Source: Candidatus Omnitrophota bacterium
Lineage (GTDB): Bacteria; Omnitrophota; Gorgyraeia; 1-14-0-20-64-10
Assembly (NCBI GenBank): GCA_023818695.1
Contig: JAMWCF010000001.1
Coordinates: forward strand, 3,538-67,537
Direction of reading: 5' to 3'
Length of the DNA: 64,000 nt
A model generated the notes under the pieces. That model was not told the origin of the DNA. It did not search any database and saw nothing but the letters and a program-made list of their open reading frames with translations. Below are positions 6,557-54,217 of the stretch, one piece after another. Positions within the stretch are counted from its first letter, which is position 1. Every line of letters begins with the position of its first letter. The position numbers were made by a program, and so were the translations under genes.

Positions 6557-7745
6557 AGCGGCGGTTCTTCTGGCGCTCGGGTTGGCGGCGGGGATTTTTT
6601 TGCCATCGGTGGGAGATGCCGGGCCGGCGTCCGACCCGCCGTTGGGATTGTGGATCACCTGCCTGGATCCCGAAAGCCCTTTGAATAACCCGGGCCAGGT
6701 TGAGAAACTGGTTTCTTTCGCCGAGCAGGGAAAATTCAAGATCCTCTTCGTCCAGGTTTACCGGGCGGACAAGGCCTGGTTTCTCTCGGAGACAGCGGAT
6801 TCCTCTCCGTACCTGGAGGCCAGGGAAAAAGCCGGCGGGATCGATCCCCTGCAGGAGCTGATCGATCGGGCCCATGGGAAAGGGATCGAGGTCCACGCTT
6901 GGATCAACACCCTGACCCTCTCCAGGAATTTTCAATCCGCCTTCCTGAAGGAATCCGGCGATGAGATTCTAACGAAGGACCAGTACGGCAACAGCGCTGT
7001 CAAGAACGAGGAGGCCTTGGAGGCGCCGTACCGGTATTACGAGCAGGAAAACCAGCTGTTTTTGGAGCCGGGTGATCCCAGGGTAAAGGAGCGGGTCCTG
7101 CGCGTCGTGGCGGAGCTGATCCGCGCCTATCCGACGCTGGACGGGATTCACTTCGACTACATCCGTTACCCGGCGGCGCCCCCGTTTATTCCGGGCTCCC
7201 GCTTCAACGCCGTCGGACTGTCCTACGGCTACGGGGAGCGCAATGTCGAGCGTTTCCGCCAAGCGCACGGCTTCGATCCACACGATGTTCGGGGACAGGC
7301 GGACAAGGCACTGCTGTGGGACCGGTGGAAAAGGGAGCAAATCACCGAGCTGTTGAGGGAGTGCTCCCGGCAGATCAAGGCGTCGGACCCCTCCAAGCAG
7401 GTTTCCTGCGCGGTGGTCCCATCGTTCGACCGGGCCTATCATGCGGCCGGGCAGGATTGGGGAAAATGGCTTGAGGAGAATATCATCGATTTCGCCGTTT
7501 TGATGAACTACTCCGTGGATCACAGAGCCGTGTGGCTGGGTTCCAGGGCCGCCGTCGGGATCGCCGGGGATCCCCGGCGGATCGCCATCGGCTTGGGCGC
7601 TTATCTTCTGGAGAAGGACCCCACGGCCTTCCAAGAACAGATTGACGCCAGCCGCCGTTTGGGTCCCCGAGCGGTTGTCCTCTTCGATTATTCGGCCGCC
7701 TCCCGACTTTCCACTGCGAAATCGGTTTCGATGGATGAGGAGTAA
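6534..7745 (+). CDS. Putative glycoside-hydrolase-like TIM-barrel lipoprotein/secreted protein (YddW / family-10-like)
   Basis: TTG start with AGGAGGA RBS; signal peptide; FKILFVQVYRADKAWF...GIEVHAWINT resembles the YddW/GHL10 family (recalled from memory, not searched). Confidence 0.5.
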   Translation: MSSLPLNKAAVLLALGLAAGIFLPSVGDAGPASDPPLGLWITCLDPESPLNNPGQVEKLVSFAEQGKFKILFVQVYRADKAWFLSETADSSPYLEAREKAGGIDPLQELIDRAHGKGIEVHAWINTLTLSRNFQSAFLKESGDEILTKDQYGNSAVKNEEALEAPYRYYEQENQLFLEPGDPRVKERVLRVVAELIRAYPTLDGIHFDYIRYPAAPPFIPGSRFNAVGLSYGYGERNVERFRQAHGFDPHDVRGQADKALLWDRWKREQITELLRECSRQIKASDPSKQVSCAVVPSFDRAYHAAGQDWGKWLEENIIDFAVLMNYSVDHRAVWLGSRAAVGIAGDPRRIAIGLGAYLLEKDPTAFQEQIDASRRLGPRAVVLFDYSAASRLSTAKSVSMDEE

Positions 7746-9012
7746 ACGTCTGTCCATTCTGTTTCTTCCTCTTTTTATCGGCGCGGGCGCCGTCTTCTTT
7801 CTCTTTTTCACGACGCCGGGCGCCATCTGGCTGACCCGGGGGATCCTTTATCTGGCGTTCGATTCCAGCGCCGTGACTTTTGGAAGCCTGAAAGGGTCCA
7901 TCGGGACCGGCGTTTCCGTGCGGGATATCCAGGTGAGCCGCCTGACTGGATTGCCCGCGGGCTCCGTTCTAAAGGTGCAGGAATTGATCGTCTCCGGCAA
8001 TCCGCTCCATCTGGAGCATATGAAGGCGGAAGTGCGCAATGGCCGCCTTCACCTGCCGGAATCGGACCATCCGGTTTTCTTCGCGGGACGGTATGAAGAT
8101 TTCATCTTCAACATCAACCTTTTCTCAAAAAGCGTCGGAGTCAGGGATACCCTGGAGCTTTTTTCCAAGGAAGGGAACTTCAGCCGGGTAGCCGGTGTGG
8201 TGAGCGACCTGGACGGCTACATCAAGGGTTCCTGGCGCAGGCCTGAAGTCAGCGGGACGCTGAAGATCGAGAACTTTTCCTACAAGGAGTTTTTGCTGGA
8301 AGACTGCCCGGTCTCTTTCCGGCTTCAGATAGAAGGGGTCAAGACGAACCCCGCAGGAACTGGGGAGGTGGTCTTTCAAAGCGGCCGGATCCGCTCCAAG
8401 AGAGCCGTTGTCTCCCTGGAGGAGAGCCGGATGTTGTTTTCAGGCAACCTGAAGGAACCGGACCTCCGTTTCAGCGGCGTGTCCAGAATTGAGGATATCA
8501 AGATCAATATTCAGCTGCTGGGAACGTTGAAAAAGCCGGAACTGCGGTTGAGCTCCGATCCGCCGCTGGCGCAGGAGTCCCTTCTGCTGATGCTGGTGAC
8601 GGGCAAAAAGTGGGGAGGTGTCGACTCGGCAGTCTCTTCGGGGCAGGTCCCTTTGAATCTGGCCAGGGACTTCGTGGACTATTTTATCTTCTCCAACATG
8701 GGGGAACATCTTTCCAAGAAACTCGGGATGGAGGGGGTTTCCCTCACCTACAACACGCAGACGAATGAAATGGGGGTAACGAAATCGGTTGCCGACAAGA
8801 TGGAGTTGCGCTACGGGGTCGAGCGTCCCCGCGCCGGAGAGCAGCCCAAAACAACCGAAACGCACAAGGTTGGAGCGGAAATCAAAATTACGGATAAAAT
8901 CTCTGTAGAGGCCCAAGGGCAAGTCCGCCAGCCTACGGAAGAAGAGGAAAGCCAGCAGGAAACCGCGCAGAAAGACGGAAAGGTTCTCCTGAAGTACAAG
9001 CAGAAGTTTTGA
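7735..9012 (+). CDS. Mini TamB-like protein (N-terminal TM anchor plus DUF490-like C-terminus)
   Basis: ATG overlaps the upstream stop; N-terminal TM LSILFLPLFIGAGAVFFLFF; C-terminal PELRLSSDPPLAQESLLLMLVTGK matches the TamB DUF490 motif (E. coli ...SEPxxSQxxILSLLLTG). Confidence 0.45.
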   Translation: MRSKRLSILFLPLFIGAGAVFFLFFTTPGAIWLTRGILYLAFDSSAVTFGSLKGSIGTGVSVRDIQVSRLTGLPAGSVLKVQELIVSGNPLHLEHMKAEVRNGRLHLPESDHPVFFAGRYEDFIFNINLFSKSVGVRDTLELFSKEGNFSRVAGVVSDLDGYIKGSWRRPEVSGTLKIENFSYKEFLLEDCPVSFRLQIEGVKTNPAGTGEVVFQSGRIRSKRAVVSLEESRMLFSGNLKEPDLRFSGVSRIEDIKINIQLLGTLKKPELRLSSDPPLAQESLLLMLVTGKKWGGVDSAVSSGQVPLNLARDFVDYFIFSNMGEHLSKKLGMEGVSLTYNTQTNEMGVTKSVADKMELRYGVERPRAGEQPKTTETHKVGAEIKITDKISVEAQGQVRQPTEEEESQQETAQKDGKVLLKYKQKF

Positions 9013-25122: not shown

Positions 25123-25212
25123 ATGTCGAACTTAAGGAAAAAACGCCGAAAGAAGATGGCTAAGCACAAGAGAAAGAAGCGTCTTCGGCGCGACAGGCAC
25201 AAGAAGAAATAA
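25123..25212 (+). CDS. Micro-ORF encoding a 29-aa highly basic peptide, 30S ribosomal protein bS22-like (AURKAIP1/COX24-like)
   Basis: AAGGGGAG RBS; MSNLRKKRRKKMAKHKRKKRLRRDRHKKK aligns with mycobacterial bS22 (…[25 protein letters not shown]…); below the ORF-track length cutoff. Confidence 0.5.
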   Translation: MSNLRKKRRKKMAKHKRKKRLRRDRHKKK

Positions 25213-25251
25213 TCGCGCCGGACGGTTATAACCGGCGTCGATACAGGAGGA

Positions 25252-26886
25252 ATGATGAACCCGCGGGGAGTGGGAAGGGGAGTTCTTTTGTCCGTTGTGA
25301 TGGCCCTCCTCGCGGCCGGTTGCAAGCATGCCGAGCGGATCAAGCTGGCCATGGATCTGCGGCAGGCGGCCGCCAGCTCGTCGAACGATTATTTTTTTCC
25401 CCGCCGGACGGAGGAACGTCTCTCCCAGTCCGCCTCTTTGGCCGCGTACTTGGCCGGCCTGCTCGCCGAGGGACAGAACGACCTTCAAACTGCCGAACAG
25501 AAATATGGCAAGGTCCTGGAAAAGGACCCCAGCTCCCAGCAGGTGCTCCTGCGCCTTGGGATCATCTACATGCGGCGCAACCAGCTGATGAACGCCAGCC
25601 GCTGTTTCGAATTGGCCGCCGCGCGCAATGAGGCCGATCCCCGTCCCCGCTTTCTGTTGGGCATTCTCTACACGAACCAGGGCCGTTTGGGCGAGGCGGC
25701 CGGTCAGTACAGCCAGATCCTCGTTGAAGACCCCGGGAATTTAGCGGCCTTGAGCCAGTTGGCCGACCTGTATGTTTTTCAGGAGAAGCTCCAGGAAGGG
25801 CTGGCCGTTTACCAGAAGTTTCTGGAGCAGAGGCCCGATTCCGCGGTCGCCCATTTCAATGTGGCGGTTCTGTACGCCAAGGTCAAACAGTGGAAAGAGG
25901 CCTCGTGGCATTTCCGCAAAGCGATCGAGCTGGATCCCGCCAATCTGGAAGCCCGTCTGGGGCTGGCTGTGAGTCTCGAGCAGGAAGGGGATTACGGCGG
26001 GGCCCAGGAGCAGTTTGAAAAAGCGCTGGCGATGGAGCCGGCCAATGTCCGCCTCATCCGCTACCTGGCCCATTTGTCCTACCGGCTGGGGGAGTTGGAG
26101 AAAGCGGCGGAATGGTTGGGCCGCTACTTGGGATACAACCCGCGGGATTCCGAAGCCTACCTGGAACTGGGATACCTGCGGATCGAACAGGGGCGCCTGG
26201 AGGAGGGGATACAGTTCATCAAGCTGGCGCTGGAGATCGGCAGTTTCGAAGAGCCCCCCCTGGACCTCTGGATCCGGCTGGGAGCCGCCTACCAGTCGGC
26301 GGGGGCTTATGCCGAGGCGGAGGCCTCTTTCCAGCAGGCGGTGAAGCTGGCACCGGAAACCACCGTCACTCATTTTTATCTGGGGGCTTTTTATCAATGG
26401 AGGCAGAGGTATCCGGAAGCGGAGGAGGCGTTCCGCAAGGCCTATCAGATCGACCCGGAGGATCCCCAGATTCTCAACGCGCTGGCTTATCTTTACGCCG
26501 TCTGGGAGGTTCGGTTGGAGGAGGCGCAGGAGCTGATTCAGAAGGCGTTGAGCCAGGATCCCGGCAACGGCGGTTTTATCGACACCCTGGCGTGGGTTTG
26601 GTTTAAAATGGGAAAGGCGAAAGAAGCGGTTCCGCTGTTGGAGGAGGCGGTCACCCGGCGCGCGGATCCGGAGATATATGAACACCTGGGTCAGGTATAC
26701 TTACATCTAGGGGAAGGGGAGAAGGCCAGGGAGGCGTGGCAGAAAGGATTGGAGTTGAATCCCCAGGATCCCAAAATACGAAAAAAACTAGAGTTGAATA
26801 TAAAATTAATTAACAATCGGCATCCGAAGCGAAAAGAGAGCAGGTTGGATGCGTCTTCCCTCATAAGAGAAAGGTTATTTACATGA
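25252..26886 (+). CDS. TPR-repeat lipoprotein (544 aa)
   Basis: AGGAGGA RBS; lipobox LLAAGC; more than 10 tetratricopeptide repeats; 4-nt overlap (ATGA) with the downstream FtsH-like gene. Confidence 0.7.
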   Translation: MMNPRGVGRGVLLSVVMALLAAGCKHAERIKLAMDLRQAAASSSNDYFFPRRTEERLSQSASLAAYLAGLLAEGQNDLQTAEQKYGKVLEKDPSSQQVLLRLGIIYMRRNQLMNASRCFELAAARNEADPRPRFLLGILYTNQGRLGEAAGQYSQILVEDPGNLAALSQLADLYVFQEKLQEGLAVYQKFLEQRPDSAVAHFNVAVLYAKVKQWKEASWHFRKAIELDPANLEARLGLAVSLEQEGDYGGAQEQFEKALAMEPANVRLIRYLAHLSYRLGELEKAAEWLGRYLGYNPRDSEAYLELGYLRIEQGRLEEGIQFIKLALEIGSFEEPPLDLWIRLGAAYQSAGAYAEAEASFQQAVKLAPETTVTHFYLGAFYQWRQRYPEAEEAFRKAYQIDPEDPQILNALAYLYAVWEVRLEEAQELIQKALSQDPGNGGFIDTLAWVWFKMGKAKEAVPLLEEAVTRRADPEIYEHLGQVYLHLGEGEKAREAWQKGLELNPQDPKIRKKLELNIKLINNRHPKRKESRLDASSLIRERLFT

Positions 26887-28538
26887 TTTACTGGTTGCGC
26901 AAGGTCAAGATTTTCTTCTCGGATCACTGGATCGCCTTTACAGTGGGGATTTTCGTCGCCATCTGTTTTGCGCTGACCTACTACGGGATGTCCAAGCTGG
27001 AGTCCTTTTACGTCAACATGACGATAGCGACCCTGCCTTTGCACATCCTGACATGGATTCTGGGTTCTGTCATTTCGGCCTTCATCTACGTTTCTCTTCT
27101 TTTCGGCATGTTTTCGAAGAGGGGTTCGCAGGGGAAGAAGGTCAAAGCGGACGAGGTGAACGTCCACTTCAGCGATGTCATCGGGATCGATGAGGCGAAA
27201 GAGGAGGCATGGGAGGTCGTCCAGCTTCTAAAGGATCACGCCCGCTTGAAGAGGGTGGGGGGGAAGATCATCCGGGGGATTCTGATGCAGGGGCCTCCGG
27301 GGTGCGGGAAGACCTATCTGGCCAAGGCGATCGCCACGGAGGCGGGGGTACCCTTCCTTTCGCTGGCCGCTTCCGATTTTGTGGAGATCTTCGTCGGTGT
27401 CGGGGCCAGTCGGGTCCGCAAGCTGTTCAAGGATGCCCGACGGAAGGCCTACAGCAACGGGGCCTGTATCGTCTTTATCGATGAGTTGGATGCGGTGGGC
27501 CGGACTCGGTCCTTCAGCTGGATGGGAGGGCAGGAAACCAATTCCACCTTGAACTCCATTCTGGTTGAGATGGACGGGTTGCAGGGAAGACGGGAAAATG
27601 TAATCGTCATCGGGGCCACCAACGCTGCGGAGGAGGCTTTGGATCCGGCGCTGCTTCGTCCCGGCCGATTTGACCGGAAGATTTATGTGGACCGTCCCAA
27701 CCTGGTCGGCCGCGAAAAAATCCTGGAGTATTACATGGGAAAGATCCAGGCGGAGGCCGGGATCGATATCCCCCGCCTTGCTCGCAGGACCGTCGGGAAG
27801 ACCCCCGCGGAGCTGGAGAACCTTGTGAAGGAAGCGGCCTTGATCGCGACCCGCAACAAGCGGGAGAAGGTGACATACGATGATCTTTCCGAGGCCCTGG
27901 AGCGGATCGAGCTGGGGATCAAGCACCGCAAGAGCATGTCCGAGCATGAAAGAAAAATGACGGCCTACCACGAAGCCGGCCATCTGCTGGTCCTTTATTT
28001 TCTGCATCCGACCGACGATGTCTTCAAGGCCTCCATCATCGCCCGGCGGGGGACGCTGGGGGTGGTTTACCACGCTCCCCGCGAGGAACTGCACTCCCAC
28101 GATAAGAACAAACTGATGGCCGACATCAAGGTGTCGCTGGCGGGCTACTGCGCGGAGAAAATCGTTTACGGCGTCACCACCACGGGGGTGTCGGGCGATT
28201 TCCAGAACGCCATGGCCAAGGCGCACACGATGGTTTGGCGGCTGGGGATGGGTTCGAAATACTTGGGGGACTGGGGGATGCTCACGAACAACGGCAGCAG
28301 CCAGACCCTCTCCGAAAACGTCCGGGCCGAACTGAACGCCGAAACCAACGCCATCTTTCAGGAGTGCCTGAAAGAGGTTGAGCAGCTTTTGACCCGGGAG
28401 AGGAAGATCCTGGACCGGTTTGCCGATGAGCTGGTGAAGCGCGAGGAGTTGGAATACGACGACATCGAGGCAATTTTTGCCGAATACGGCAAGAGCCAAA
28501 AGCGCGAGGGAAATCAGCCCAAGCCGGCTTCCACGTAA
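26883..28538 (+). CDS. Atypical FtsH-family AAA+ ATPase / M41 zinc metalloprotease with minimal periplasmic loop
   Basis: Two N-terminal TMs ~20 aa apart, with no ~70-aa periplasmic domain; Walker A GPPGCGKT, Walker B IVFIDELD, SRH region; HEAGH zinc motif; C-terminal domain shorter than canonical FtsH. Confidence 0.75.
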   Translation: MIYWLRKVKIFFSDHWIAFTVGIFVAICFALTYYGMSKLESFYVNMTIATLPLHILTWILGSVISAFIYVSLLFGMFSKRGSQGKKVKADEVNVHFSDVIGIDEAKEEAWEVVQLLKDHARLKRVGGKIIRGILMQGPPGCGKTYLAKAIATEAGVPFLSLAASDFVEIFVGVGASRVRKLFKDARRKAYSNGACIVFIDELDAVGRTRSFSWMGGQETNSTLNSILVEMDGLQGRRENVIVIGATNAAEEALDPALLRPGRFDRKIYVDRPNLVGREKILEYYMGKIQAEAGIDIPRLARRTVGKTPAELENLVKEAALIATRNKREKVTYDDLSEALERIELGIKHRKSMSEHERKMTAYHEAGHLLVLYFLHPTDDVFKASIIARRGTLGVVYHAPREELHSHDKNKLMADIKVSLAGYCAEKIVYGVTTTGVSGDFQNAMAKAHTMVWRLGMGSKYLGDWGMLTNNGSSQTLSENVRAELNAETNAIFQECLKEVEQLLTRERKILDRFADELVKREELEYDDIEAIFAEYGKSQKREGNQPKPAST

Positions 28539-28551
28539 AAGGTGCTTTTGG

Positions 28552-29847
28552 ATGCGACGTTCTTTTCTCCTGTCCGTGACGCTGCTCTCCTGTACGCTCC
28601 TGACCTCCTGCGGCCCCTCTTATCCAAAGGAGCGGGTGGCGCAGTCGGTCGTTGACCTGTGCAAACGGGAATACAACCTGGACGTCATGTGCCAGGTACA
28701 GCAAACGACCATCGGCGTTCAGATTGTCATTCCCGGAATCATCGCCGAGTTGATGAAGCAGTCCGCCGGCTCCGGACCGGAGCTGCCCCCTCCGCTGGTG
28801 ATGGAAGGGGAATACCGGGATAACGATTTCAATTTTCAGTTCCAGGCCAAAGGGACCTTTGTCCGGGCTGGAAAGGAAAAGGAACGGGAAGAGAGCCGCC
28901 CCTCCCGGGACAGGGAGGAGTCGAAAGAGCTCAAAGCGCTCAACAACGTCTCGATGGTGATCAACCGGGTGGCCCTTTCGACCGATGCCAAACTGGAGTT
29001 CTATCTCCTGGTCGTGCGGGACCCCCTTTCGCACCTGGACCTGATTTTTTCAGGCCACCTCGGCGATTTGAAGCAGGTCCAATACTGGGCGATTTCGCGA
29101 GGGGAACTGCAGAAGCGAAGTAGGGTTTCCATGCGTCCGCCGCCGGAAGAGGTGGCCGCGCAGACGGTGGCTGATTTCTTGAACGACCTGTCGCAGGAGA
29201 CGCTCCTGCAGCTTTTGGAGCGCTACGCCGCTTTTTCCACCCGGTTCGGAGAGCTGCTGCCCAAGATCCTGCAGATGGCGGTGGAGTTCCAGGGGGCCCA
29301 GCGGCTGCTTCTGACGGAGAAATGGCCGGTCCGCCAGATCAGTCCGGACGAGGTTTTGGTTTACGTCACCCTCGAACCTGTGCGCAAGCCGGGAGCGATT
29401 CTGTTCACCGTTCAGATCAGGGAAGGCAGGGGGTATCTGGCCGGCCTGGACCGGTTGGAGAGCGGCCAGGTTCCCTATCCCTATACGGCGTTCGGCCCTC
29501 CGGAAAAATGGCATGAGGCCTTTTTCCTTGAGCCGATCGATCTGGCTCAATTCCTTTCCGATCAGATTGCTAAGCGGGTCCTGTCGGAATTCCGCCCGTA
29601 CAGCGAGCTGGTCACGAAAGAAGGGGGCGGCGCGTCAGGCAGGCCGGCGCCGAAACCGGCGACGGAAGCGGATGTCGTCCGCACCCTGATGGAAACCTCC
29701 GCTTACGTGCTCAACAGCTACCGGTTTCAGGAATTCGATGCTGTCAGCGTGACGGACGTCATGCAGGGAACCCGGTGGCAGGTTTCATCAAAGGAGCTGC
29801 CGCTTTACCGGCGGTCGAACGCTCCGGACCTGCAACCCATTCCATGA
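28552..29847 (+). CDS. Hypothetical lipoprotein (431 aa)
   Basis: Signal peptide with lipobox LLTSC; no recognisable domain; 13 nt downstream of the FtsH-like gene. Confidence 0.5.
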   Translation: MRRSFLLSVTLLSCTLLTSCGPSYPKERVAQSVVDLCKREYNLDVMCQVQQTTIGVQIVIPGIIAELMKQSAGSGPELPPPLVMEGEYRDNDFNFQFQAKGTFVRAGKEKEREESRPSRDREESKELKALNNVSMVINRVALSTDAKLEFYLLVVRDPLSHLDLIFSGHLGDLKQVQYWAISRGELQKRSRVSMRPPPEEVAAQTVADFLNDLSQETLLQLLERYAAFSTRFGELLPKILQMAVEFQGAQRLLLTEKWPVRQISPDEVLVYVTLEPVRKPGAILFTVQIREGRGYLAGLDRLESGQVPYPYTAFGPPEKWHEAFFLEPIDLAQFLSDQIAKRVLSEFRPYSELVTKEGGGASGRPAPKPATEADVVRTLMETSAYVLNSYRFQEFDAVSVTDVMQGTRWQVSSKELPLYRRSNAPDLQPIP

Positions 29848-39309: not shown

Positions 39310-41631
39310 ATGCGATACGGCATGTTCCTTCGTCCCAATCTGCGCCATTCTTTCTTGCGGGCCGCACTCTGTCTCGTCCTCTCCGTCCTTCTCGCTGTCC
39401 CGGTTTGGTGCGAGGAAGGGGAATTCAAGGTGACGGCCGTGGAGGTGGAAGGCAACACCATTGTGTCTTCCGGAACGATTCTTTCGAAGATCAAAACACG
39501 GCCCGGAGACACCATCCGCCAGGCAGAGGTGGATGAGGATATCAAACGTCTTTATGCCACCGGGTTCTTTATTGATGTTTCCGCCGAGACGCGTTCCTAC
39601 CAGGACGGGCAGTTGATCCGCTTCCGGGTGAAGGAGCGGCCGCTGGTTTCCAGCATCGTGATCACGGGCAACCGCCATTTTAGGGAGAATAAGATCCGGG
39701 AGGAACTGGGGACGAAGGAGCAGGAGTTGTTGGACCGCAGGCAGTTGAAGGAGGACCTGGACAAGATCCGCCAGCTCTACCGAACGAAGGGGTTCTACCT
39801 GGCGGACATCAGCTCGGATGTCAAGATAGACGAGGCGACCAACAGGGCCACCGTTTTCATCACCGTAACGGAAGGGAAGAAAATCCGCGTCAGGAGGATT
39901 CGGTTCAGCGGCAACGAACATATCTCCAGCAAGCGTTTGCGCAAGGCGATGTCCACGAAGCAGGGATGGTGGTTCACGGCCGGCTATTACCGTCCCGAAG
40001 TCCTGGAGGATGACGAAGAGCGGCTGAAGGCACTTTACCGGTCGGAGGGCTACAGCGACGTTCGGGTGGATTCCTCCGTGCAGTTTGACGAAAAGAGAAG
40101 ATGGCTGACGGTCTCGATCATCGTTGAAGAGGGCCCCCTTTACCTCGTCGGCAACGTCCTCTTCCGCGGGGTTTCCCAGCTGCCGGAGGGGGAGCTGGCG
40201 GAGAAGCTCAAACTCCGGGCGGAGGAGCCGTTCAGCCAGGACCGTTTGGCGGAAGACGTGGCGATGGTTCAATCGGCCTATTTTGCAAAGGGATTCATGG
40301 CCGCTTCCGTGGATCCGACGACTGCCTTGAACCCTGCGACGAACCGGGTGGATGTGACCCTGCAGGTGGAGGAAGGAGCGATTTATTACGTGGGGGAGGT
40401 CTTGATCCGCGGGAACACCAAAACGCGGGATACGGTAATTCGAAGGGAATTGCTGGTTTCCCCCGGAGAGCGCTTTGACGGGGACCGCTTGAGGCGTTCC
40501 AAGGAGCGGCTTTACAACCTGGGATATTTCGAGGAGGTGACGCTGGAAACGGTGCCGTCTGAGGAACCGCAGATGCGGGACTTGGTGGTCTCCGTCAAAG
40601 AGAGCAAGACAGGCGAGTTTTCGTTTGGCGGCGGGTTCAGCTCGGTTGACAGCTTCATCGGTTTTGCGGAGATCACCCAGCGCAACTTTGATCTCTTCAA
40701 CTGGCCGACCTTTACAGGGGGCGGGCAGGAGCTCAAGTTCAGCGTTTTACTCGGGACGACCCGGAAGGATTTCGAGCTTTCGTTCACGGAACCGTGGGTG
40801 TTCGACTACCCCTATCTGTTCGGTTTCGACCTTTTCCAGACAAGCCGGATTGAGGCGGAAGGGTACAGCTTTGATTTGAGGCGGCGCGGCGGCGACCTGC
40901 GGCTCGGCAAACGGCTCGGAGATTTCGACAAGCTGGCGTTCCTCTACCGCTTGGAGCGCGTGGAGGTTTCCAATGTGGCCGACACGGCGTCGGCGCCCCT
41001 TTTGGCCGAGGTGGGGACCAACACGATTTCCGCCATCCGACTGGCTTATACCCGGGATATCCGGGACAATGTTTTCAACCCGACAAGCGGCTATCTTTTC
41101 TCCACAAACGCGGAGGTCGCGGGTTCGGTCTTGGGCGGCGACAAGGATTTCTGGAGGTGGACGGGGACGGCCTCTTATGATGTGGAGCCGTTTATCGACA
41201 ACCAGGTCCTGGAACTGCGCGCCAATCTGGGGATCGTCAACGAGTACGGTGATTCCGATGCTGTCCCGATCTTTGAGCGGTTTTTCGCTGGAGGGGCGGA
41301 CAGCATCCGGGGTTACCAGGAGCGCCGGGTGGGTCCGAAGGATGTCGTGACAAACGATCCGGTCGGCGGCGAGGCGCTGGCCGTCTTCAATGCGGAGTAC
41401 ACGGTCCCGTTCGCTGATTTTCTGAAGGGCGCGATCTTCTACGATGTCGGCAACGTATGGGCGGATATGGAGGATTTCGGGTCGGAGGGTTTTAAGTCGG
41501 GGGCGGGAGCGGGTGTTCGGGTAAAAACTCCTTTCGGGCCTGTCAAACTTGATTACGGGTTTCCGATCAATCCGGACAAGGGCGAGCGAAAGACAGGCCG
41601 GGTGCATTTTTCCGCGAGCAGAAGCTTCTAA
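39310..41631 (+). CDS. bamA: Outer membrane protein assembly factor BamA (Omp85)
   Basis: Signal peptide, multiple POTRA repeats, C-terminal beta-barrel ending ...VHFSASRSF. Confidence 0.88.
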   Translation: MRYGMFLRPNLRHSFLRAALCLVLSVLLAVPVWCEEGEFKVTAVEVEGNTIVSSGTILSKIKTRPGDTIRQAEVDEDIKRLYATGFFIDVSAETRSYQDGQLIRFRVKERPLVSSIVITGNRHFRENKIREELGTKEQELLDRRQLKEDLDKIRQLYRTKGFYLADISSDVKIDEATNRATVFITVTEGKKIRVRRIRFSGNEHISSKRLRKAMSTKQGWWFTAGYYRPEVLEDDEERLKALYRSEGYSDVRVDSSVQFDEKRRWLTVSIIVEEGPLYLVGNVLFRGVSQLPEGELAEKLKLRAEEPFSQDRLAEDVAMVQSAYFAKGFMAASVDPTTALNPATNRVDVTLQVEEGAIYYVGEVLIRGNTKTRDTVIRRELLVSPGERFDGDRLRRSKERLYNLGYFEEVTLETVPSEEPQMRDLVVSVKESKTGEFSFGGGFSSVDSFIGFAEITQRNFDLFNWPTFTGGGQELKFSVLLGTTRKDFELSFTEPWVFDYPYLFGFDLFQTSRIEAEGYSFDLRRRGGDLRLGKRLGDFDKLAFLYRLERVEVSNVADTASAPLLAEVGTNTISAIRLAYTRDIRDNVFNPTSGYLFSTNAEVAGSVLGGDKDFWRWTGTASYDVEPFIDNQVLELRANLGIVNEYGDSDAVPIFERFFAGGADSIRGYQERRVGPKDVVTNDPVGGEALAVFNAEYTVPFADFLKGAIFYDVGNVWADMEDFGSEGFKSGAGAGVRVKTPFGPVKLDYGFPINPDKGERKTGRVHFSASRSF

Positions 41632-41657
41632 ACAACCTCTCTATTTCAGGTGCGGCG

Positions 41658-42197
41658 ATGAAAACAAACAAAACTTATCTCGCGTTTCTCCTCTTTTTTC
41701 TGGTCTTTTCGGCCGGGGTTCCGTTGTTGGCGGCGGAAGGGGGAGGTTCGGTCGGCAAGGTGGGCATTGTGCGCTTGAGCAAGGTTTTCGACGAATATGA
41801 GCAGACGAAAAGCTCTGAAAGCGCTCTGGAGGACATCTCCAACGCGAAACAGAGCGAGAGGGAGCGGATGGTCATCGAGATCCGGAACATGAGGGATGAG
41901 CTGCTCCTGCTCAATCAGCAGGGCCGGGCCGAGAAACAGAAGGAGATCGAGGAGAAGATGAAAAGTCTGGCTTTGTTCGAGCGCCAGGCCAAAGAGGAGC
42001 TTCAGAAGAAAAGAGAGGAATCCCTCCGCCTGATTTTTGAGCAGATTGAAGGGGTTGTCACCGAATATGCCCGGCAGAACGGTTTCCAGATGATTCTGTC
42101 GGACCGGGCTGTTTTGTACGGCGAGGATTACCTGGACGTGACGGAAGACGTGATCCGGGTCTTGAACAGCCGTCCGACGGCGACGGCAAAACGGTAA
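41658..42197 (+). CDS. skp: OmpH/Skp periplasmic chaperone
   Basis: Signal peptide plus long coiled-coil OmpH-like region; conserved position between bamA and lpxD. Confidence 0.8.
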
Positions 42198-42208
42198 CAG
42201 ATTTCTCT

Positions 42209-43303
42209 ATGGTGCTCAAAAAGGGCAGAAAAGCAGGCGCGACGAGGGCCGTTTCAGCCCGGCGTTTGAAGGAGTTGGCAAGGCTGGTTTCCGGCGAGGT
42301 TGTCGGCGACGGCAACACCCTGATCACCGGGATCTGTGGGATCAAAGAAGCCCGTGCCGGAGACATCACCTTCATTGCCAACTCCAAGTACCAGCATCTG
42401 CTGCAAACGACGCAGGCCTCGGCGGTCATCACCTCCCGCGATGTGCAGACCGCCCCGAAGCCGATCATCCGGACCGACAATCCGTCCCTGGCTTTTTCAA
42501 AGCTTGTTTCTCACTTCGTTCCCTCGGTCCAGAAGCATCCTTCCGGGGTCAGCCCGAGGGCTTTCATCGGCAAGGGGGTCCGTGTGGGCAAGGGGGCGGC
42601 GGTTGGCCCGTTTGCCGTCGTGGAAGAAGGGGCCAGCATTGGGGACAGGACGGTTGTGTACGCCGGCGCCTACATCGGAAGGGACGCCTCTGTCGGCAAC
42701 GACTGCCTGATTTATCCCCACGTCACCATCCGTGAGAGGGTGGAGATAGGCCACCGGGTCATCGTCCATTCCGGTAGCGTCATCGGCTCCGACGGGTTCG
42801 GGTTCGCCACGGTGCAGGGGGTCCACCATAAAATCCCGCAGATCGGCACAGTCATCGTGGAGGACGATGTGGAGATCGGAGCCAACGTGACCATCGACCG
42901 GGCCCGCTTCGGCAAGACCCTCATCGGCAGGGGGACAAAGATTGACAACCTGGTCCAGATTGCCCACAACGTGATCGTGGGACCCAACAGCATCCTGGTT
43001 TCCCAGTCGGGCATTTCCGGGTCGACCGTTCTGGGCAGCAACGTTGTCTTGGCCGGACAGGCCGGTTTGGTGGGCCATATCACCATCGGCGACAACGTGA
43101 TGGTGGGAGGGCAGTCCGGTGTCACGAAATCGGTTCCTCCTAACACCCACGTGTGGGGGATTCCCGCCAAGCCTTTGGCGAAGGCCAAGCGGATCAACGC
43201 GGTGGTGCAGCGCTTACCCGAACTTCATAAGACGGTTGAAATGTTGGAGCAGCGGATAGAAGAACTGGAAAGGGAACGTGGAAGAAAGTCAGTCCCCCCC
43301 TAA
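42209..43303 (+). CDS. lpxD: UDP-3-O-acylglucosamine N-acyltransferase LpxD
   Basis: N-terminal LpxD domain ([20 protein letters not shown]) followed by left-handed beta-helix repeats. Confidence 0.88.
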
Positions 43304-44627
43304 ACAGCAGACCATCAAGCGTCCGGTCCGGATCGAGGGGGTGGGCCTTCATACCGGGTGTTCGGTCAGGGCCGAGTTCAGGCCGGCTCCGCCGGATTCG
43401 GGGATCCTCTTCCAGAGGACCGATCTGGCCGGAACAGGGCCGATCCGGGCTTCCGTGTCCGCGATCCTGGACGCGAGTCGGCGTCTGCGCCGCACATCCA
43501 TCGGGAACTCCGCCGTGGAGGTCCATACAATCGAGCACCTGATGGCCAGCTGCGTCGGCCTCGGGATCGACAACCTGCTGGTGGAACTCAATAACGAGGA
43601 AGTCCCAGGACTGGACGGTTCCGCCTATCCGTTCCTGGAGATCTTCAAGCAGGCGGGCCTCCAGGAGCAGAACGCGGCCAAGAAGATGATCCAGATCCGG
43701 GAGCCGGTCTGGGTGGAGGATGAGGCGGCCGTTGTGGCGGTTTTCCCCAGTGAGACGTTCCGCGTTTCGTATACCTTGAGCTACCCCGTTCCCGGCCTGA
43801 CGGCCCAGTTCTTCTCGGCCAGCGTCACGCCGCAGCTTTTTGAAACCGACCTAGCTCCCTCCAGAACCTTTTGCCTGGCCCAGGAGGTGGAGGCATTGAG
43901 GAAGATTGGTCTTGGCAAGGGGGCCAATTATGAAAATACCGTTGTGGTCGACAACACCGGCCGGGTCGTCAACAACCACCTGCGGTATCCGGATGAATTC
44001 GTGCGTCATAAGGTGATTGATCTGATCGGCGACATGTATCTTCTGGGCAGGCCCCTGCAGGGACATGTGCTGGCTTTCCGGTCGGGCCATGCCTTGAACT
44101 TGAAGCTGATCCATAAGATCCAGCAGACGCTGGATCGGGGTCGGGAGAGCGGCATCAAGGCCCAGTACATCGAGCCGGAGGCCTCCTCGCTTGACATCCT
44201 TGCGATCGAGAGAATTCTGCCTCACCGCTACCCCTTCCTGCTGGTGGACAAGGTGACGGAGATTGTTCCGGACAAACGGGCCTCCGGCGTCAAGAATGTC
44301 ACCATCAACGAGCAGTTTTTCACAGGCCATTTCCCGAAGCGTCCTGTCATGCCAGGCGTTCTCATCATCGAGGCGCTGGCGCAGCTTTCCGGCCTGCTCC
44401 TCCTGAATAAACCGGAGAATCTCGGCAAGTACGCCTATTTCATTGCGATGGACAATGTTCGGTTCCGGCGGACCGTCTTGCCGGGAGATACCCTTCATCT
44501 GGAGACGGAGGTCCTCAAGCTCCGGACGAAAACCGGACAGATGAGGACCCGGGCCCTCGTCGATGGAAAGGTCGCCGCCGAGGCGGATCTGATGTTTGCC
44601 CTTTTAGAGGGGGATGAGAAGCTGTAG
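43278..44627 (+). CDS. lpxC: Bifunctional UDP-3-O-acyl-GlcNAc deacetylase / 3-hydroxyacyl-ACP dehydratase (LpxC-FabZ fusion)
   Basis: GTG start; N-terminal LpxC ([16 protein letters not shown]...HALN) fused to C-terminal FabZ hot-dog domain ([13 protein letters not shown]...FTGHFP). Confidence 0.88.
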
Positions 44628-44639
44628 GCAGAAGGGAAA

Positions 44640-45443
44640 ATGGCCAAATTAGGGCTCATTGCCGGCAACAGGGCATTCCCCATCCATGTCGCCAGGGCGG
44701 CGAAGGGGCAGGGGTACGAGGTGGTGGCGATCGGCTTGAAGGAGGAGACGGTCTCCTCCCTGGAGTCGGAGGTTCAGCGGATGTATTGGCTGACCCTGGA
44801 CAAAATTGGTCAGGTTCCGGAAATTCTGAAAGAAGAAGGAATCAAGGAGCTGATCCTGGCCGGGCAGATCAAGCCGGAGAGATTGCTCCAAGGGGACGGC
44901 CGTTTTGAGGGACCGGCGCAGCAGCTGTTGAGGATGATGCCGGACCGTTCCGGGGCCTCCGCGATGAAGCTGGCCGTCCACTATCTGGAATCCCAGGGGT
45001 TCCGCGTCCTGGATTCCAGTCATTTCCTGAAGGAATGGATCCCCTCTGCCGGCCTCTTGACGCGCAGGACGCCGACCGATGAGGAGCAGGCGGACGTTGC
45101 CTACGGGATCCCTCTGGCCAGGGATTTGAACCGCTTGGGGATCGGCCAGACGCTGGTGATCCGGCGCAAGGCGGTCGTGGCCGTTGAGGGGATGGAGGGG
45201 ACGGACGCCGCCGTCCGCAGGGCCGGCCAGGTGGCGGGTACCGGCTGCGTGGTCGTCAAGGCATGCGGACCGCAGCACGACATGCGGTTCGACATCCCGG
45301 TGGTCGGTTCAGAAACGTTGAAAGCCATGAAAGAGGCAGGCGCCTCCTGCATCGGCGTGGAGGCTAAGCGGACCCTCCTGTTTGAGAAGCCGCAGCTGAT
45401 CCGGTTCGCGGACGAGACCGGCCTTTCCATCATCGCTGTTTAG
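44640..45443 (+). CDS. lpxI: Putative UDP-2,3-diacylglucosamine hydrolase LpxI (DUF1009 family)
   Basis: N-terminal LGLIAGNRAFP motif and ~270-aa size fit the LpxI family as recalled; lies in the lipid A cluster. Confidence 0.6.
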   Translation: MAKLGLIAGNRAFPIHVARAAKGQGYEVVAIGLKEETVSSLESEVQRMYWLTLDKIGQVPEILKEEGIKELILAGQIKPERLLQGDGRFEGPAQQLLRMMPDRSGASAMKLAVHYLESQGFRVLDSSHFLKEWIPSAGLLTRRTPTDEEQADVAYGIPLARDLNRLGIGQTLVIRRKAVVAVEGMEGTDAAVRRAGQVAGTGCVVVKACGPQHDMRFDIPVVGSETLKAMKEAGASCIGVEAKRTLLFEKPQLIRFADETGLSIIAV

Positions 45444-49290: not shown

Positions 49291-50664
49291 ATGGAATGGA
49301 AAGTAGCGGCAGACACCCTCTGGGTGTTGATAACGGCGATGCTGGTCTTCTGGATGAATGCCGGCTTCGCGACGGTGGAAGCCGGTTTTCAGGCGCAGAA
49401 GAACTGCGTCAATATCTTGTCCAAGAACTTCGTTGTTTTTGCTATTGCGTCGATCGCTTATTGGTGGGTTGGTTTCGGCCTGCAGTTCGGGGATGGCAAC
49501 GGCTGGGTCGGGATGCAGGGGTTGTTTTCTCTTCGCGGAGCCGATAATTCGCCGGCGACCGGGGATGCTTATAAGGGTGTCTACAGCTCCTTGAGCTGGA
49601 CCGGCGTTCCTCTGCTGGCGAAATTCTTTTTCCAGCTGGTTTTCTGCGGGACGGCGGCGACCATCGTTTCAGGAGCGGTCGGAGGCAGGATCAAGTATTT
49701 TTCGTTCCTTGTTTTCTCCTTCTTCCTCTGCGCGCTGGTTTATCCGATCGTCGGACACTGGATCTGGGGCGGAGGATGGCTGGCGAAGGCCGGTTTCTGG
49801 GATTTCGCCGGCTCAACGGTTGTTCACTCGGTCGGCGGCTGGGGTGCCCTCGCGGGGGCTCTTCTGCTAGGGCCCCGCTTCGGCAAATACAGCCCCACCG
49901 GTTCCATCATGCCGACGCCGGGCCATAATCTGTCGCTGGCCACGATAGGAACCTTCATCCTGTGGCTTGGCTGGTTCGGGTTCAATCCTGGATCAACCAT
50001 GGCGGCGGATCCGAGCGCCATCGCCCGGATCTGCGTGACGACCAACTCCGCCGCGATTGCCGGGATCCTGGGAGCCACTTTGACCTCCTGGATCACGCTG
50101 GGCAAGCCGGACCTGGGCATGACCTTGAACGGCTGTCTGGCCGGGCTGGTCGGCATCACGGCGCCGTGCGCCTTTGTCAGCGTGGAGAGTTCGCTGATCA
50201 TTGGCTTCATCGCGGGTGTTCTGGTCGTGCTGGCTGTCCCGATCTTTGACCGGCTGCGGATCGACGACCCGGTCGGCGCCACCTCGGTCCACCTCGTCAA
50301 TGGGATCTGGGGGACCCTGGCGGTCGGTCTTTTCGCGCAGGATTCGATCATGCCGAATACCACCGGAAACGGCCTGTTTTTCGGGGGAGGCACCAAGCTC
50401 CTGGCCGCCCAGGCGACCGGTGTTTTCGCCGTTGGGGTGTTCACGTTCGTGACCTGCGCGATCGTGTGGGCTCTGATCAAGGTGACGATGGGAATCCGAG
50501 TCGCTCTCCATGAGGAGATCTCCGGTCTGGATGTCGGCGAGCACGGCAACTCGGCCTATCCGGAGTTCGTGATCCGCAAGCCCTCTTATTCCTATGCGAG
50601 CATCGTGGCCCGTCCCGCGGAATACAGCGAGACGCCGGTTTCTGTGAATGGAGGCAAGAAATGA
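49291..50664 (+). CDS. amt: Ammonium transporter (Amt family)
   Basis: 11-TM Amt/MEP protein with signature stretches such as GAVGGRIKYFSF and FGFNPGS. Confidence 0.92.
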   Translation: MEWKVAADTLWVLITAMLVFWMNAGFATVEAGFQAQKNCVNILSKNFVVFAIASIAYWWVGFGLQFGDGNGWVGMQGLFSLRGADNSPATGDAYKGVYSSLSWTGVPLLAKFFFQLVFCGTAATIVSGAVGGRIKYFSFLVFSFFLCALVYPIVGHWIWGGGWLAKAGFWDFAGSTVVHSVGGWGALAGALLLGPRFGKYSPTGSIMPTPGHNLSLATIGTFILWLGWFGFNPGSTMAADPSAIARICVTTNSAAIAGILGATLTSWITLGKPDLGMTLNGCLAGLVGITAPCAFVSVESSLIIGFIAGVLVVLAVPIFDRLRIDDPVGATSVHLVNGIWGTLAVGLFAQDSIMPNTTGNGLFFGGGTKLLAAQATGVFAVGVFTFVTCAIVWALIKVTMGIRVALHEEISGLDVGEHGNSAYPEFVIRKPSYSYASIVARPAEYSETPVSVNGGKK

Positions 50665-51063: not shown

Positions 51064-51253
51064 GGCCGGAAATTAAGCTAGAATAGTCAATATTCCGGGC
51101 TGGGGAACCCCACCCCTCCTGTTTCTGCACGGTTGGACACAGTTCTTCCAAAGGGCCGTTTTTCCCTTGTAGAGAAATCGGGCCGAGTGTCTTGATTCGA
51201 ATCAGTTTTTGAGGTGGATTTTGAAAAAGCGAAAGAAGGAGAAACGAAAAGCC

Positions 51254-52795
51254 ATGGCACGAGGGACCACAGCAGCTAAAACACGGGGCAAGGCGTCATT
51301 GAATGGGCGGGGGAGCCAGTCCGAAAAGACGTTCCCCATCGCGGCCGTTGCCAACGAGCCGCCGAAAGCGGATGAAGCGGCTGTCCGCCGGTTATGGAAG
51401 ATTATTAAGGAGAATAACATCCAGGTCGTGGACCTGAAGTTCAACGACCTGCCCGGGCTGTGGCAGCATTTTTCCATCCCGGTCTCCGAGTTGAGCGAGA
51501 ACCCCAGAGAGGGGATCTGGGTCGACGGGATTGGGTTCGACGGGTCGTCGATCCGCGGTTTCCAGAAGATCCAGGAATCGGACATGAACCTGTATGCCGA
51601 CCCGAGCACGGCGATCCTGGACCCGGTTTGCGAGGCGCCGACCTTGAGCATGATCTGCGACATCTATGATCCGTTGACGAAGAAGCCCTACACCCGGGAC
51701 CCCCGCTACATCGCCAGGAAGGCCGAAGCGTACCTGAAGAAAACCGGCATCGCCGACATCAGCTACTGGGGTCCGGAACCGGAATTCTTCATCTTCGATG
51801 ACATCCGGTTCGATTCGACGGAAAACTCCAGCTACTACTTCGTCGATTCCATCGAAGGAGAGTGGAACTCCGGCCGGGACGAGAAGCCAAACCTCGGCTA
51901 CAAGCCCCGCTTCAAGGAAGGGTACTTCCCGGTGCCGCCTCACGATGTCTTTCAGGACATCCGCAGCGAGATCATGAAGAAGGCCCGGGAGGCCGGCGTC
52001 CCCGTGGAGAAGCATCACCATGAGGTGGCCACGGCCGGTCAGGCGGAGATCGACATGCGCTACGGCACCCTCACCCAGATGGCGGACTGGCTGATGACGC
52101 TCAAATACGTCGTCAAGAACGTCGCCCGCAAGCACGGCAAGGTGGCCACCTACATGCCCAAGCCGCTCTTCGGCGACAACGGATCCGGCATGCACACCCA
52201 CCAGAGTCTCGCGAAAGAGGGGACCAACCTGTTCTACGACAAGAACGGCTACGCCCTGATCAGCCAGACCTGCAAGTGGTACATCGGCGGGCTGCTTAAG
52301 CATGCCCCGGCAATCCTGGCCTTCGCGGCTCCCGGCACCAACTCTTACAAGCGGTTGGTCCCCGGCTACGAGGCGCCTGTGAACTTGGCCTACTCGGCCC
52401 GGAACCGGTCGGCGATCTGCCGCATCCCGGTTTACACGCCGCACCCGAAAAGCAAGAGGGTGGAGTTCCGCGCCCCCGACCCCTCCTGCAACCCGTACAT
52501 CACGTTCGCGGCGCTGCTTATGGCGGGGCTGGATGGCATCCAGAACCGGATCGATCCGGGACAGCCGGTGGATGAGAACATCTACGAGATGCCGGCGGAC
52601 AAGGCGCCCAAGCAGGTGCCCGGTTCGCTGGAGGAGGCGCTTGACGCCCTCGAGAGGGACCACGCGTTCCTGCTCAAGGGAGACGTCTTCACCAAGGACG
52701 TCATCGAGGTGTGGCTGGAGTACAAGCGGCAGGAGATTGACAAAGTCCGGCTCCGACCGCATCCGTACGAGTTCTACCTGTACTTCGACGCCTAA
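51254..52795 (+). CDS. glnA: Glutamine synthetase type I-beta (E. coli-like, with adenylylation-region Tyr) carrying a ~40-aa basic N-terminal extension
   Basis: Near-collinear with E. coli GlnA (…[16 protein letters not shown]…[14 protein letters not shown]…NIYEMPAD…); first in-frame ATG is 51254, ~40 codons upstream of the position aligning with E. coli Met1. Confidence 0.88.
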
Positions 52796-52879: not shown

Positions 52880-54217
52880 ATGCCCGCTATTGAGCTGAAA
52901 GACAAAGAATACGTCCTGAAATCGGCCCGCGACCTCGGGGTCAAGTTCATCCGGTTGTGGTTCACCGACATCCTCGGGTTCCTGAAGAACGTGGCGATCA
53001 CCATCGAGGAACTGGAGGAGGCCCTGGAGGAAGGGGTCGGTTTCGACGGTTCCTCCATCGAGGGGTTCACCCGGTCCGAGGAGTCCGACATGGTGGCTTT
53101 GCCGGATCCGAACACCTTCGCGGTTTTGCCCTGGAGGCCGAAAGCCAACGCCGTTGCCCGAATGTTCTGCGACATCGTGCGCCCTGGCGGGGAACCGTTT
53201 GAAGGGGATCCCCGCTACGTTTTGAAGCAGAATCTGAAGAAGGCGGCCGAGTTGGGCTACACCTTTTACGTCGGGCCGGAGCTGGAGCATTTCTATTTCA
53301 AGTCGGCCGAGGAGCCGATCCCCTTGGATGCCGGCGGCTATTTCGACCTGACCCCGCTGGATCTGGCTTCCAACCTGCGGCGTGAAACGATCCTGGCGCT
53401 GGAGGAGCTGGGGATCGGCGTCGAGTTCAGCCACCATGAGGTGGCCCCCTCCCAGCATGAGATCGATTTCCGGTACGCCGACGCCCTGACGATGGCGGAC
53501 AACGTGATGACCTACCGGCTCGTCACCAAGGAGATCGCCCTGGAGCACGGGGTCTACGCCACTTTCATGCCGAAGCCGATGGCCGGGCAGAACGGTTCCG
53601 GCATGCATGTGAACATCTCCCTCTTTAAAGGGGAGAGGAACGCCTTCTTCGATCCGAACGATCCGGCCCATCTGTCCGGAGTGGCTAAGAGCTTTCTTGC
53701 CGGGATCCTCAAGCATGTCAGGGAGTTCACCGTGGTCACCAACCAGTGGGTGAATTCCTACAAGCGGCTGACCCCCGGTTATGAGGCGCCGGCTTATGTC
53801 ACCTGGGCTTTAACGAACCGGGCCGATCTGGTGCGTGTCCCCAGGGCTAAACCAGGTAAAGAAGAGGCCTGCCGAATTGAACTGCGGTCTCCTGACCCGG
53901 CTTGCAACCCGTACCTGGCTTTCAGCGCCATCTTGGCGGCCGGACTGGATGGTATCCGGAAGAAAGAATCTCTTCCGCCTGAAGCGCAAACTAACGTGGC
54001 CTCCCTCTCCCCCGCGGAGAGGTCCCAAAAGGGGATCCAGGCCCTTCCCAGAGATCTGGGAGAGGCGATTGAAGCGGCCAGCGGCTCGGCGCTTCTGAAA
54101 TCGGCGTTGGGCGACCACATCTACAGTTCCTTCCTGCGCAACAAGCAGATGGAATGGGAAAAATACTGCTCTGCCGTCACCGATTTTGACCTGAAGACCT
54201 ACTTACCGTTGCTGTAA
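52880..54217 (+). CDS. glnA: Glutamine synthetase type I-alpha (B. subtilis-like, 445 aa)
   Basis: MPAIELKDKEYVLKSARDLGVKFIRLWFTDILG... short GSI-alpha architecture lacking the 25-aa insertion. Confidence 0.9.
   Translation: MPAIELKDKEYVLKSARDLGVKFIRLWFTDILGFLKNVAITIEELEEALEEGVGFDGSSIEGFTRSEESDMVALPDPNTFAVLPWRPKANAVARMFCDIVRPGGEPFEGDPRYVLKQNLKKAAELGYTFYVGPELEHFYFKSAEEPIPLDAGGYFDLTPLDLASNLRRETILALEELGIGVEFSHHEVAPSQHEIDFRYADALTMADNVMTYRLVTKEIALEHGVYATFMPKPMAGQNGSGMHVNISLFKGERNAFFDPNDPAHLSGVAKSFLAGILKHVREFTVVTNQWVNSYKRLTPGYEAPAYVTWALTNRADLVRVPRAKPGKEEACRIELRSPDPACNPYLAFSAILAAGLDGIRKKESLPPEAQTNVASLSPAERSQKGIQALPRDLGEAIEAASGSALLKSALGDHIYSSFLRNKQMEWEKYCSAVTDFDLKTYLPLL

Follow-up and report, generated by a model that had tools for sequence, protein, structure and literature searches.

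What does an FtsH protease work with on the periplasmic side when it has no periplasmic domain? Among membrane-bound AAA+ proteases, FtsH alone is present in nearly all bacteria, and its regulators HflK and HflC probably act on it through its periplasmic domain. The question is raised by a 64,000-nt stretch of DNA from a Candidatus Omnitrophota bacterium (contig JAMWCF010000001.1, positions 3,538 to 67,537; the whole stretch is called the window here), in which three adjacent plus-strand genes encode a tetratricopeptide-repeat (TPR) lipoprotein of 544 residues (25252-26886), an Omnitrophota-type FtsH, that is, an AAA+/M41 zinc metalloprotease, of 551 residues (26883-28538), and an Omnitrophota-specific lipoprotein of 431 residues (28552-29847). 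We lean, by a small degree, towards a reading in which the 551-residue protein is a housekeeping FtsH of the Omnitrophota that lacks the periplasmic domain, and the lipoprotein encoded downstream is its periplasmic partner in trans.

An earlier reading of the letters alone (the sequence-only reading) had placed the three open reading frames (ORFs) at these coordinates, and the ORF list agrees with it, as it does on the ATGA overlap of the TPR stop and the ftsH start at 26883-26886 and on the 13-nt gap (28539-28551) between the ftsH stop and the lipoprotein ATG at 28552. A Shine-Dalgarno-like AAAGGTG (28538-28544, plus strand) can be read 7 nt before this ATG. The lipoprotein ORF is open back to a TTG at 28477, and the likely start is the ATG at 28552, which gives the 431-residue form also present in the NCBI annotation (P0121). 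The same reading treated the three genes as a self-contained operon. They are instead part of an extended series of closely spaced genes of one orientation (hisG, a 29-codon basic ORF, TPR, ftsH, lipoprotein, ispE, spoVG, tRNA-Gln, clpX, glmU, prs and ribosomal protein genes), which has no terminator-like site between its genes and a strong promoter-like site only upstream of hisG. Identical or near-identical proteins come from Candidatus Omnitrophica/Omnitrophota metagenome-assembled genomes (MAGs), and the window's own contig is 697 kb long, with locus tags NC910_*.

The 551-residue protein matches the Pfam families AAA (E 9.6e-39), AAA_lid_3 and Peptidase_M41 (PF01434, E 8e-40, profile positions 2-191 of 191), and it aligns with solved FtsH cores to their ends at E about 1e-100. 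A motif scan and the alignment show that every FtsH catalytic motif is present. On the plus strand, these are the Walker A motif GPPGCGKT (residues 137-144, 27291-27314), the pore loop FVGVG (residues 170-174, 27390-27404), which is aligned with the FVGVG of solved FtsH and whose aromatic residue serves as the substrate grip, the Walker B motif IDELD (residues 199-203, 27477-27491), the second region of homology with the arginine fingers TNAAEEALDPALLRPGRFDR (residues 246-265, 27618-27677), and the zinc-binding HEAGH (residues 363-367, 27969-27983), aligned with the HEAGH of solved FtsH. Acidic residues are retained as candidate third zinc ligands, namely the E in AEKIVYG (28152-28172, plus strand) and the D in SGDF (28191-28202, plus strand). 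Judged from these motifs, the protein is very probably an active FtsH protease. Its identity to canonical FtsH representatives of other phyla (42-47%) is normal for orthologues between phyla. Against TIGR01241, whose curated equivalog cutoff is 600 bits, it scores 501.9 bits over profile positions 106-598 of 598. The cutoff is missed because the N-terminal 105 profile positions are unmatched, and missing it leads to the NCBI label 'AAA family ATPase' for such proteins, so that Omnitrophota genomes can appear to be without FtsH. The C-terminus had been called truncated, but the alignment runs to the last TIGR01241 position and to the ends of the solved cores, and what is missing is only the variable tail of some species.

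The difference lies at the N-terminus. Hydropathy places a first transmembrane (TM) helix at residues ~16-35 (26928-26987, plus strand; peak 17-35) and a second at residues ~53-77 (27039-27113, plus strand; peak ~46-73), leaving 17 residues between them, whereas the distance is 80-100 residues in canonical FtsH representatives. The Pfam scan gives no match to PF06480 (FtsH_ext) in the protein. The description of an FtsH-family AAA+/M41 enzyme without a periplasmic domain is thus borne out by the domain matches and by the helix spacing. Basic residues precede the first helix and follow the second, from which we infer, by the positive-inside rule, an N-in/C-in topology of the two-helix hairpin. 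The canonical periplasmic region, in comparison, is ~75 residues long and contacts HflK in E. coli (PMC12067869). The Omnitrophota form shares with the FtsH of E. coli, T. maritima, Thermus and Aquifex (TIGR01241, MEROPS M41) the two N-terminal TM helices, the AAA+ motifs, and the M41 HEAGH with its acidic ligand candidates, and differs from them in having a 17-residue loop in place of the ~75-residue PF06480 domain and in falling under the equivalog cutoff (501.9 versus 600). The mitochondrial i-AAA protease Yme1 (match E 1.5e-80) is also an FtsH family member without the canonical inter-TM domain. However, Yme1 has a single TM helix and is inserted the other way round, its catalytic domains facing the intermembrane space, whereas the Omnitrophota FtsH appears to keep the two-helix N-in/C-in arrangement.

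The short periplasmic loop MSKLESFYVNMTIATLP (residues 36-52, 26988-27038, plus strand) is strongly conserved. The aligned FtsH sequences share the motif G-x-x-x-L-E-S-(F/Y)-Y-R-N-x-x-L-A-x-x-P, in which S41, A49 and P52 are invariant. Over 36 FtsH sequences, the mean column entropy of the loop is 0.99 bits, compared with 1.91 for the first TM helix, 1.74 for the second and 1.81 for the cytoplasmic linker; it is comparable to that of the M41 domain (1.15 bits). A short exposed loop so constrained should either bind a partner or be needed structurally. The lipoprotein encoded with FtsH, which its conserved N-terminus would hold at the membrane surface, is the obvious candidate for the partner, and we give a direct contact between loop and lipoprotein slightly less than an even chance.

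The pairing of the two genes was followed across the phylum in a GTDB scan with one genome per species, which returned 45 loci in 45 different species genomes, one each, whose FtsH is 54-82% identical to that of the window. The contig extends far enough to be informative in 36 of them, the other nine being cut by contig ends, and in all 36 a family hidden Markov model places a lipoprotein-family gene immediately after ftsH, in the same orientation; this pairing is a further difference from canonical FtsH. Three of the nine contig-end loci have partial lipoprotein matches. From the ftsH stop to the lipoprotein start, the distance lies between -4 and +80 nt in most loci; an ATGA-type overlap of 4 nt or a gap of 0-80 nt is typical. 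The overlap in many genomes suggests translational coupling of the two genes. The neighbours of the pair vary, upstream (uvrA with a small exported ORF, enolase, rpe, transketolase and others) as well as downstream (ispE, purN, recO, hrcA-grpE-dnaJ). The pair is bracketed on both sides by opposite-strand genes in L025, L030 and L031, and is therefore a stand-alone two-gene unit there. Short members of the lipoprotein family also follow FtsH variants of the architectures AAA-M41-AAA-M41 (P0006) and TM-AAA-AAA-M41 (P0062). Because the pairing is kept where nothing else is conserved, the conserved unit is ftsH plus the lipoprotein gene. The genetic linkage noticed in the sequence-only reading therefore stands for this pair in all informative loci, and falls away for the TPR gene as a third syntenic member. 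We consider a functional coupling of ftsH and the lipoprotein gene to be likely.

Could the lipoprotein nevertheless be unrelated to proteolysis? It might be an envelope protein of lipid, peptidoglycan or outer-membrane biogenesis that shares the ftsH promoter, both proteins being needed constitutively. Such a role would agree with the lack of any sequence or fold link to known FtsH partners and with the weak NTF2-like or lipid-binding-like fold matches described below (E 0.03-0.2); besides, in the clade of the window gene order is conserved throughout the surrounding, unrelated housekeeping genes, and adjacency is weak evidence there. On the other hand, all 36 informative loci keep the two genes side by side, whereas none of the other neighbours is constant, and operon hitch-hiking alone rarely survives rearrangement on the scale of a phylum. 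The lipoprotein also stays beside duplicated FtsH variants, and a separate role would leave the strong constraint on the FtsH periplasmic loop without explanation. On balance we regard this explanation as improbable.

The FtsH loci hold three further features of their own. First, FtsH variants with internal duplications occur in Omnitrophota and related metagenomes (P0006/P0007, L049:469-3288; P0062, L050:235-2727; P0176-P0184). Their architectures are AAA-M41-AAA-M41, TM-AAA-AAA-M41 and up to four AAA modules before one M41 (1367 residues); P0006 and P0062 are of the same locus type, with a short lipoprotein-family member after each. With protomers of FtsH fused covalently, the hexamer would no longer be six-fold symmetric. 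Second, hrcA-grpE-dnaJ lies directly after the ftsH-lipoprotein pair in one lineage (L044:13272-16044), which sets the protease beside a heat-shock chaperone operon. Third, in the clade with uvrA upstream, a small ORF of 112-150 residues with an N-terminal hydrophobic segment lies between uvrA and ftsH (L010:9482-9844, L012:3940-4323, L017:9445-9897, L018:8994-9380, L036:6279-6665, L044:9507-9845). Several copies conserve a D-(Q/R)-D-P-I-K-E-T motif, and the L044 copy has no Pfam or NCBIfam match. This small ORF may be another periplasmic accessory in place of the TPR gene.

The 431-residue protein begins with a signal peptide with the lipobox LLTSC (Cys20), followed by a conserved CGPSYPKE. 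Cys20 is invariant in 39 family members, the lipobox is present among the orthologues listed, and the residues after the lipidated cysteine are conserved across the family as C-x-x-(S/T)-Y-P-x-E. Scans of Pfam and NCBIfam give no match, in agreement with its earlier description as a lipoprotein with no known domain. Its relatives form about 55 clusters, all from MAGs of Omnitrophota or the Planctomycetes-Verrucomicrobia-Chlamydiae (PVC) group, all named 'hypothetical' and none with a Pfam domain; a profile search that included distant members found no relatives beyond these Omnitrophota/PVC MAGs, and none that is annotated. AlphaFold2, run with 53 sequences, predicts with confidence (pLDDT 92.2, pTM 0.86) four alpha+beta modules, each a helix packed against an antiparallel sheet. 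Foldseek against the PDB found no significant match for the whole model, only weak NTF2-like, VirB8-like and ARC6-IMS matches (E 0.03-0.2), and nothing for the most conserved N-terminal half. An SPFH/Band 7 domain (PF01145) was found neither by Pfam nor among the Foldseek matches listed. Family members range from about 270 to 550 residues through loss or expansion of the middle modules, while the lipidated cysteine, the x-(S/T)-Y-P-x-E motif after it and the first two modules remain constant.

We also considered the lipoprotein as a detached FtsH periplasmic domain. An hhalign comparison of the lipoprotein family with the periplasmic regions of 14 canonical FtsH representatives gave a probability of 0.3%, and this origin was rejected at the sequence level.

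The same architecture could belong to a regulator on the substrate side, that is, a sensor of the periplasmic or outer-membrane state or an HflK/C-like negative gate, perhaps itself degraded by FtsH. The length variation with dispensable middle modules would suit a variable sensor on a constant docking part, and the synteny and loop conservation are the same as those behind a partner in trans. The same sequence data, however, fit a partner in trans equally well, and the lipoprotein has no SPFH domain, whereas an SPFH protein (PF01145) is separately encoded in a related genome, according to the available part of the data for that genome. We think such a sensor or gate rather unlikely. In the FtsH-HflK/HflC holoenzyme, HflK and HflC carry SPFH domains and TM anchors, assemble into a 24-mer cage and attach to the periplasmic domain of FtsH. 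The likeness to that system would lie in a membrane-anchored, periplasm-facing partner that modulates FtsH. The candidate partner in Omnitrophota, in contrast, is predicted to be a four-module alpha+beta lipoprotein without an SPFH signal, and its FtsH has no periplasmic domain to bind.

Is this protease the housekeeping FtsH, or a specialised copy? The sequence-only reading favoured the latter: an FtsH paralogue beside a canonical FtsH, with the TPR protein as a LapB-like adaptor and the lipoprotein as a third subunit, in envelope quality control of the LpxC-FabZ fusion. A relatives search over 5.8 billion proteins returned more than 120 clusters at 60-82% identity to the 551-residue protein; those with a named source are all Omnitrophota, and the length is 536-569 residues in nearly all clusters. 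Omnitrophota is also the source of more distant forms with the short loop, whose identity falls as low as 39% (P0223 cluster). From locus to locus, FtsH identity rises and falls with that of ClpX (82 versus 85% in L001, 58 versus 64% in L024), and this ClpX-like conservation implies that ftsH evolves like an essential housekeeping gene. No second, canonical FtsH lies in the 64-kb window, and none was found at E ≤ 1e-20 within ±10 kb of the 45 loci. The nearest named canonical representatives belong to Chloroflexota, Actinomycetota and Anaplasmataceae, none to Omnitrophota.

Published genome data point in the same direction. In the available part of the source data of Seymour et al. 2023 (PMC10066038), a binary table of Pfam presence per genome, genome 58 (GCA_023819605.1, order B26-G9, ~93% complete, <1% contamination) has PF01434, PF17862 and K03798. 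PF06480 is absent from the entry for genome 58, because its Pfam list goes from PF06470 directly to PF06508 (PMC10066038). A phylum-wide form of ~545 residues, one per genome in 45 species genomes and with ClpX-like conservation, and a ~93% complete Omnitrophota genome whose available entry has M41 without FtsH_ext, both speak against a paralogue. The sequence-only reading had itself held that a sole FtsH would simply be a divergent housekeeping enzyme, and within the window and ±10 kb of the 45 loci the data point to just that. The 551-residue protein looks like the housekeeping FtsH of the Omnitrophota rather than a specialised paralogue, and on this evidence we hold it likely, with some reserve, to be their main and probably only FtsH. 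Our literature search found no paper linking FtsH with the Omnitrophota, and some Omnitrophota genome papers are silent on FtsH. Several GTDB representative MAGs with this locus (L001, L005-L007, L009, L020, L021, L029, L032, L035, L039, L042) are titled 'uncultured Planctomycetia bacterium' in public records; these titles probably reflect a submitter taxonomy that mismatches the Omnitrophota-type gene content.

The TPR gene bears on the LapB part of the paralogue proposal. The 544-residue protein has a signal peptide with the lipobox LAAGC (Cys24) and TPR families over residues ~53-510, so that its description as a lipoprotein made mostly of TPRs was correct. It falls below every NCBIfam equivalog cutoff, including those of PrsT, MamA, PilW, LapB, NlpI and BepA; the LapB models give 64.3, 47.4 and 45.4 bits (cutoffs 363, 474 and 430) and the NlpI model 58.5 bits (cutoff 250). 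Only two cysteines are seen, the lipobox Cys24 and one in SRCFE, and a search for the CxxC motif of a rubredoxin-type zinc finger in the protein found none. In LapB (YciM), a TM helix at the N-terminus is the anchor, the TPRs are cytoplasmic, and the C-terminus carries a rubredoxin. What the locus shares with the LapB-FtsH-LpxC system is a TPR protein whose gene lies next to an ftsH, in a producer of lipopolysaccharide (LPS). The lipoprotein signal peptide, however, means that the window's TPR protein is exported and periplasmic, and without CxxC the LapB analogy fails on topology. NlpI-Prc, in which an exported TPR lipoprotein works with a protease, is topologically a closer analogy than LapB, but the NlpI score is far under its cutoff and the active sites of the Omnitrophota protease would be cytoplasmic.

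Across the scanned loci, about 33 of which are informative on this point, the TPR gene is directly upstream of ftsH at a spacing of ≤30 nt in 13 (the clade of the window and the distant L013), one gene away in three (L021, L024 and L026), and absent beside ftsH in at least 17. The proposed three-gene synteny does not extend over the phylum, and since an entire 12-gene neighbourhood is collinear in the clade of the window, the TPR-ftsH adjacency there says little. A specialised paralogue with a LapB-like adaptor can draw on the tight spacing (ATGA overlap and 13-nt gap), the TPR-ftsH adjacency in 13 loci including L013, the other FtsH-derived architectures in the phylum, and the LPS genes with the LpxC-FabZ fusion, which is real (43278-44627) and lies 13 kb downstream of the three genes. 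However, an exported TPR lipoprotein cannot reach cytoplasmic LpxC or the cytoplasmic face of FtsH, the rubredoxin is missing and the LapB scores are far under their cutoffs, the TPR gene is often not there, the protease is phylum-wide and single per genome in the scan with housekeeping-like conservation, and the available entry for the ~93% complete relative lists no FtsH_ext. We therefore rate the paralogue with its LapB-like adaptor as very improbable. If the TPR protein is involved at all, it acts on the periplasmic side.

We return to the housekeeping FtsH with the lipoprotein as its partner in trans. In the mechanism that we propose, FtsH is a probable N-in/C-in two-TM hairpin, after which come the AAA+ unfoldase, complete in its motifs, and the M41 zinc protease. 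As the AAA+/M41 layout is complete, substrates would be pulled from the membrane or the cytoplasm and degraded as by canonical FtsH, with the hexamers unfolding and degrading them in the cytoplasm as usual. The strongly conserved 17-residue loop takes the place of the ~75-residue periplasmic domain. The lipoprotein, presumably co-transcribed with ftsH, would dock on the conserved loop and the TM hairpin from the periplasmic side, one copy per protomer or per hexamer. As a periplasmic module in trans, it would organise, gate or regulate the FtsH hexamer and so replace the role held elsewhere by the FtsH periplasmic domain and HflK/C. The TPR lipoprotein may be an optional periplasmic accessory in some lineages, or a mere neighbour.

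Several points weigh against this mechanism. It is by inference that the two proteins touch, that the lipoprotein has this role and that the protease is the sole FtsH; for the last of these, the search for a second FtsH spans the window and ±10 kb of the 45 loci, which is a part of the 697-kb contig and of the genome. PF06480 is an insensitive model, and the published Pfam table is binary and available for a single genome. The lipoprotein has neither profile similarity to the canonical FtsH periplasmic region (the 0.3% given above) nor an SPFH signal. A lipoprotein destined for the outer membrane, and not retained in the inner one, would have difficulty, on steric grounds, in reaching a loop of 17 residues. 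A more far-reaching form of the idea, which we put forward tentatively and consider doubtful, is a split FtsH holoenzyme: the ancestral periplasmic domain would have been lost, and a lipoprotein of new fold, seated on the loop, would form a crown on the hexamer that couples the periplasmic or outer-membrane state to cytoplasmic proteolysis. Some lineages would add the TPR lipoprotein, and the targets would perhaps include LpxC-FabZ.

FtsH itself and family members without an inter-TM domain (Yme1) are known already. Our literature search found no record of a phylum-wide loss of the periplasmic domain, of a conserved mini-loop, or of an obligate pairing with an orphan lipoprotein family. A phylum whose FtsH is without the periplasmic domain and has instead a conserved loop and a linked lipoprotein offers a natural experiment on what the periplasmic side of FtsH does. 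Should the lipoprotein prove to be a partner in trans, it would represent a new class of FtsH accessory protein and give a function to a phylum-specific orphan family; if the reading is wrong, the locus is merely a divergent housekeeping gene with a conserved neighbour. Database practice is corrected as well, as the FtsH cutoff misses the Omnitrophota form.

Other genes of the window are recorded here as observations. The 29-codon basic ORF between hisG and the TPR gene (MSNLRKKRRKKMAKHKRKKRLRRDRHKKK, 25124-25213, plus strand) is kept in L001 and L032; we take it to resemble the small basic ribosomal protein bS22, and the NCBIfam scan gave no match. An outer-membrane/LPS cluster on the plus strand (39310-45443) holds bamA (39310-41631), lpxD, the lpxC-fabZ fusion and lpxI; tamB lies at 7642-9012 and an msbA-like ABC transporter gene at 59600-61387. 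These outer-membrane and LPS genes indicate that the organism is diderm, with lipid A synthesis via LpxI. The lpxB ORF (57430-59397, minus strand, 655 residues) matches the LpxB domain only over residues ~270-649, and its unmatched first ~265 residues are a real N-terminal extension unless the ORF was called too long, from a TTG start. Two glutamine synthetase genes stand in tandem (51209-52795 and 52880-54217, plus strand) just downstream of an ammonium transporter gene (49291-50664), and between the second of them and lpxB lies a 986-residue ORF (54456-57416, plus strand) with no Pfam or NCBIfam match.

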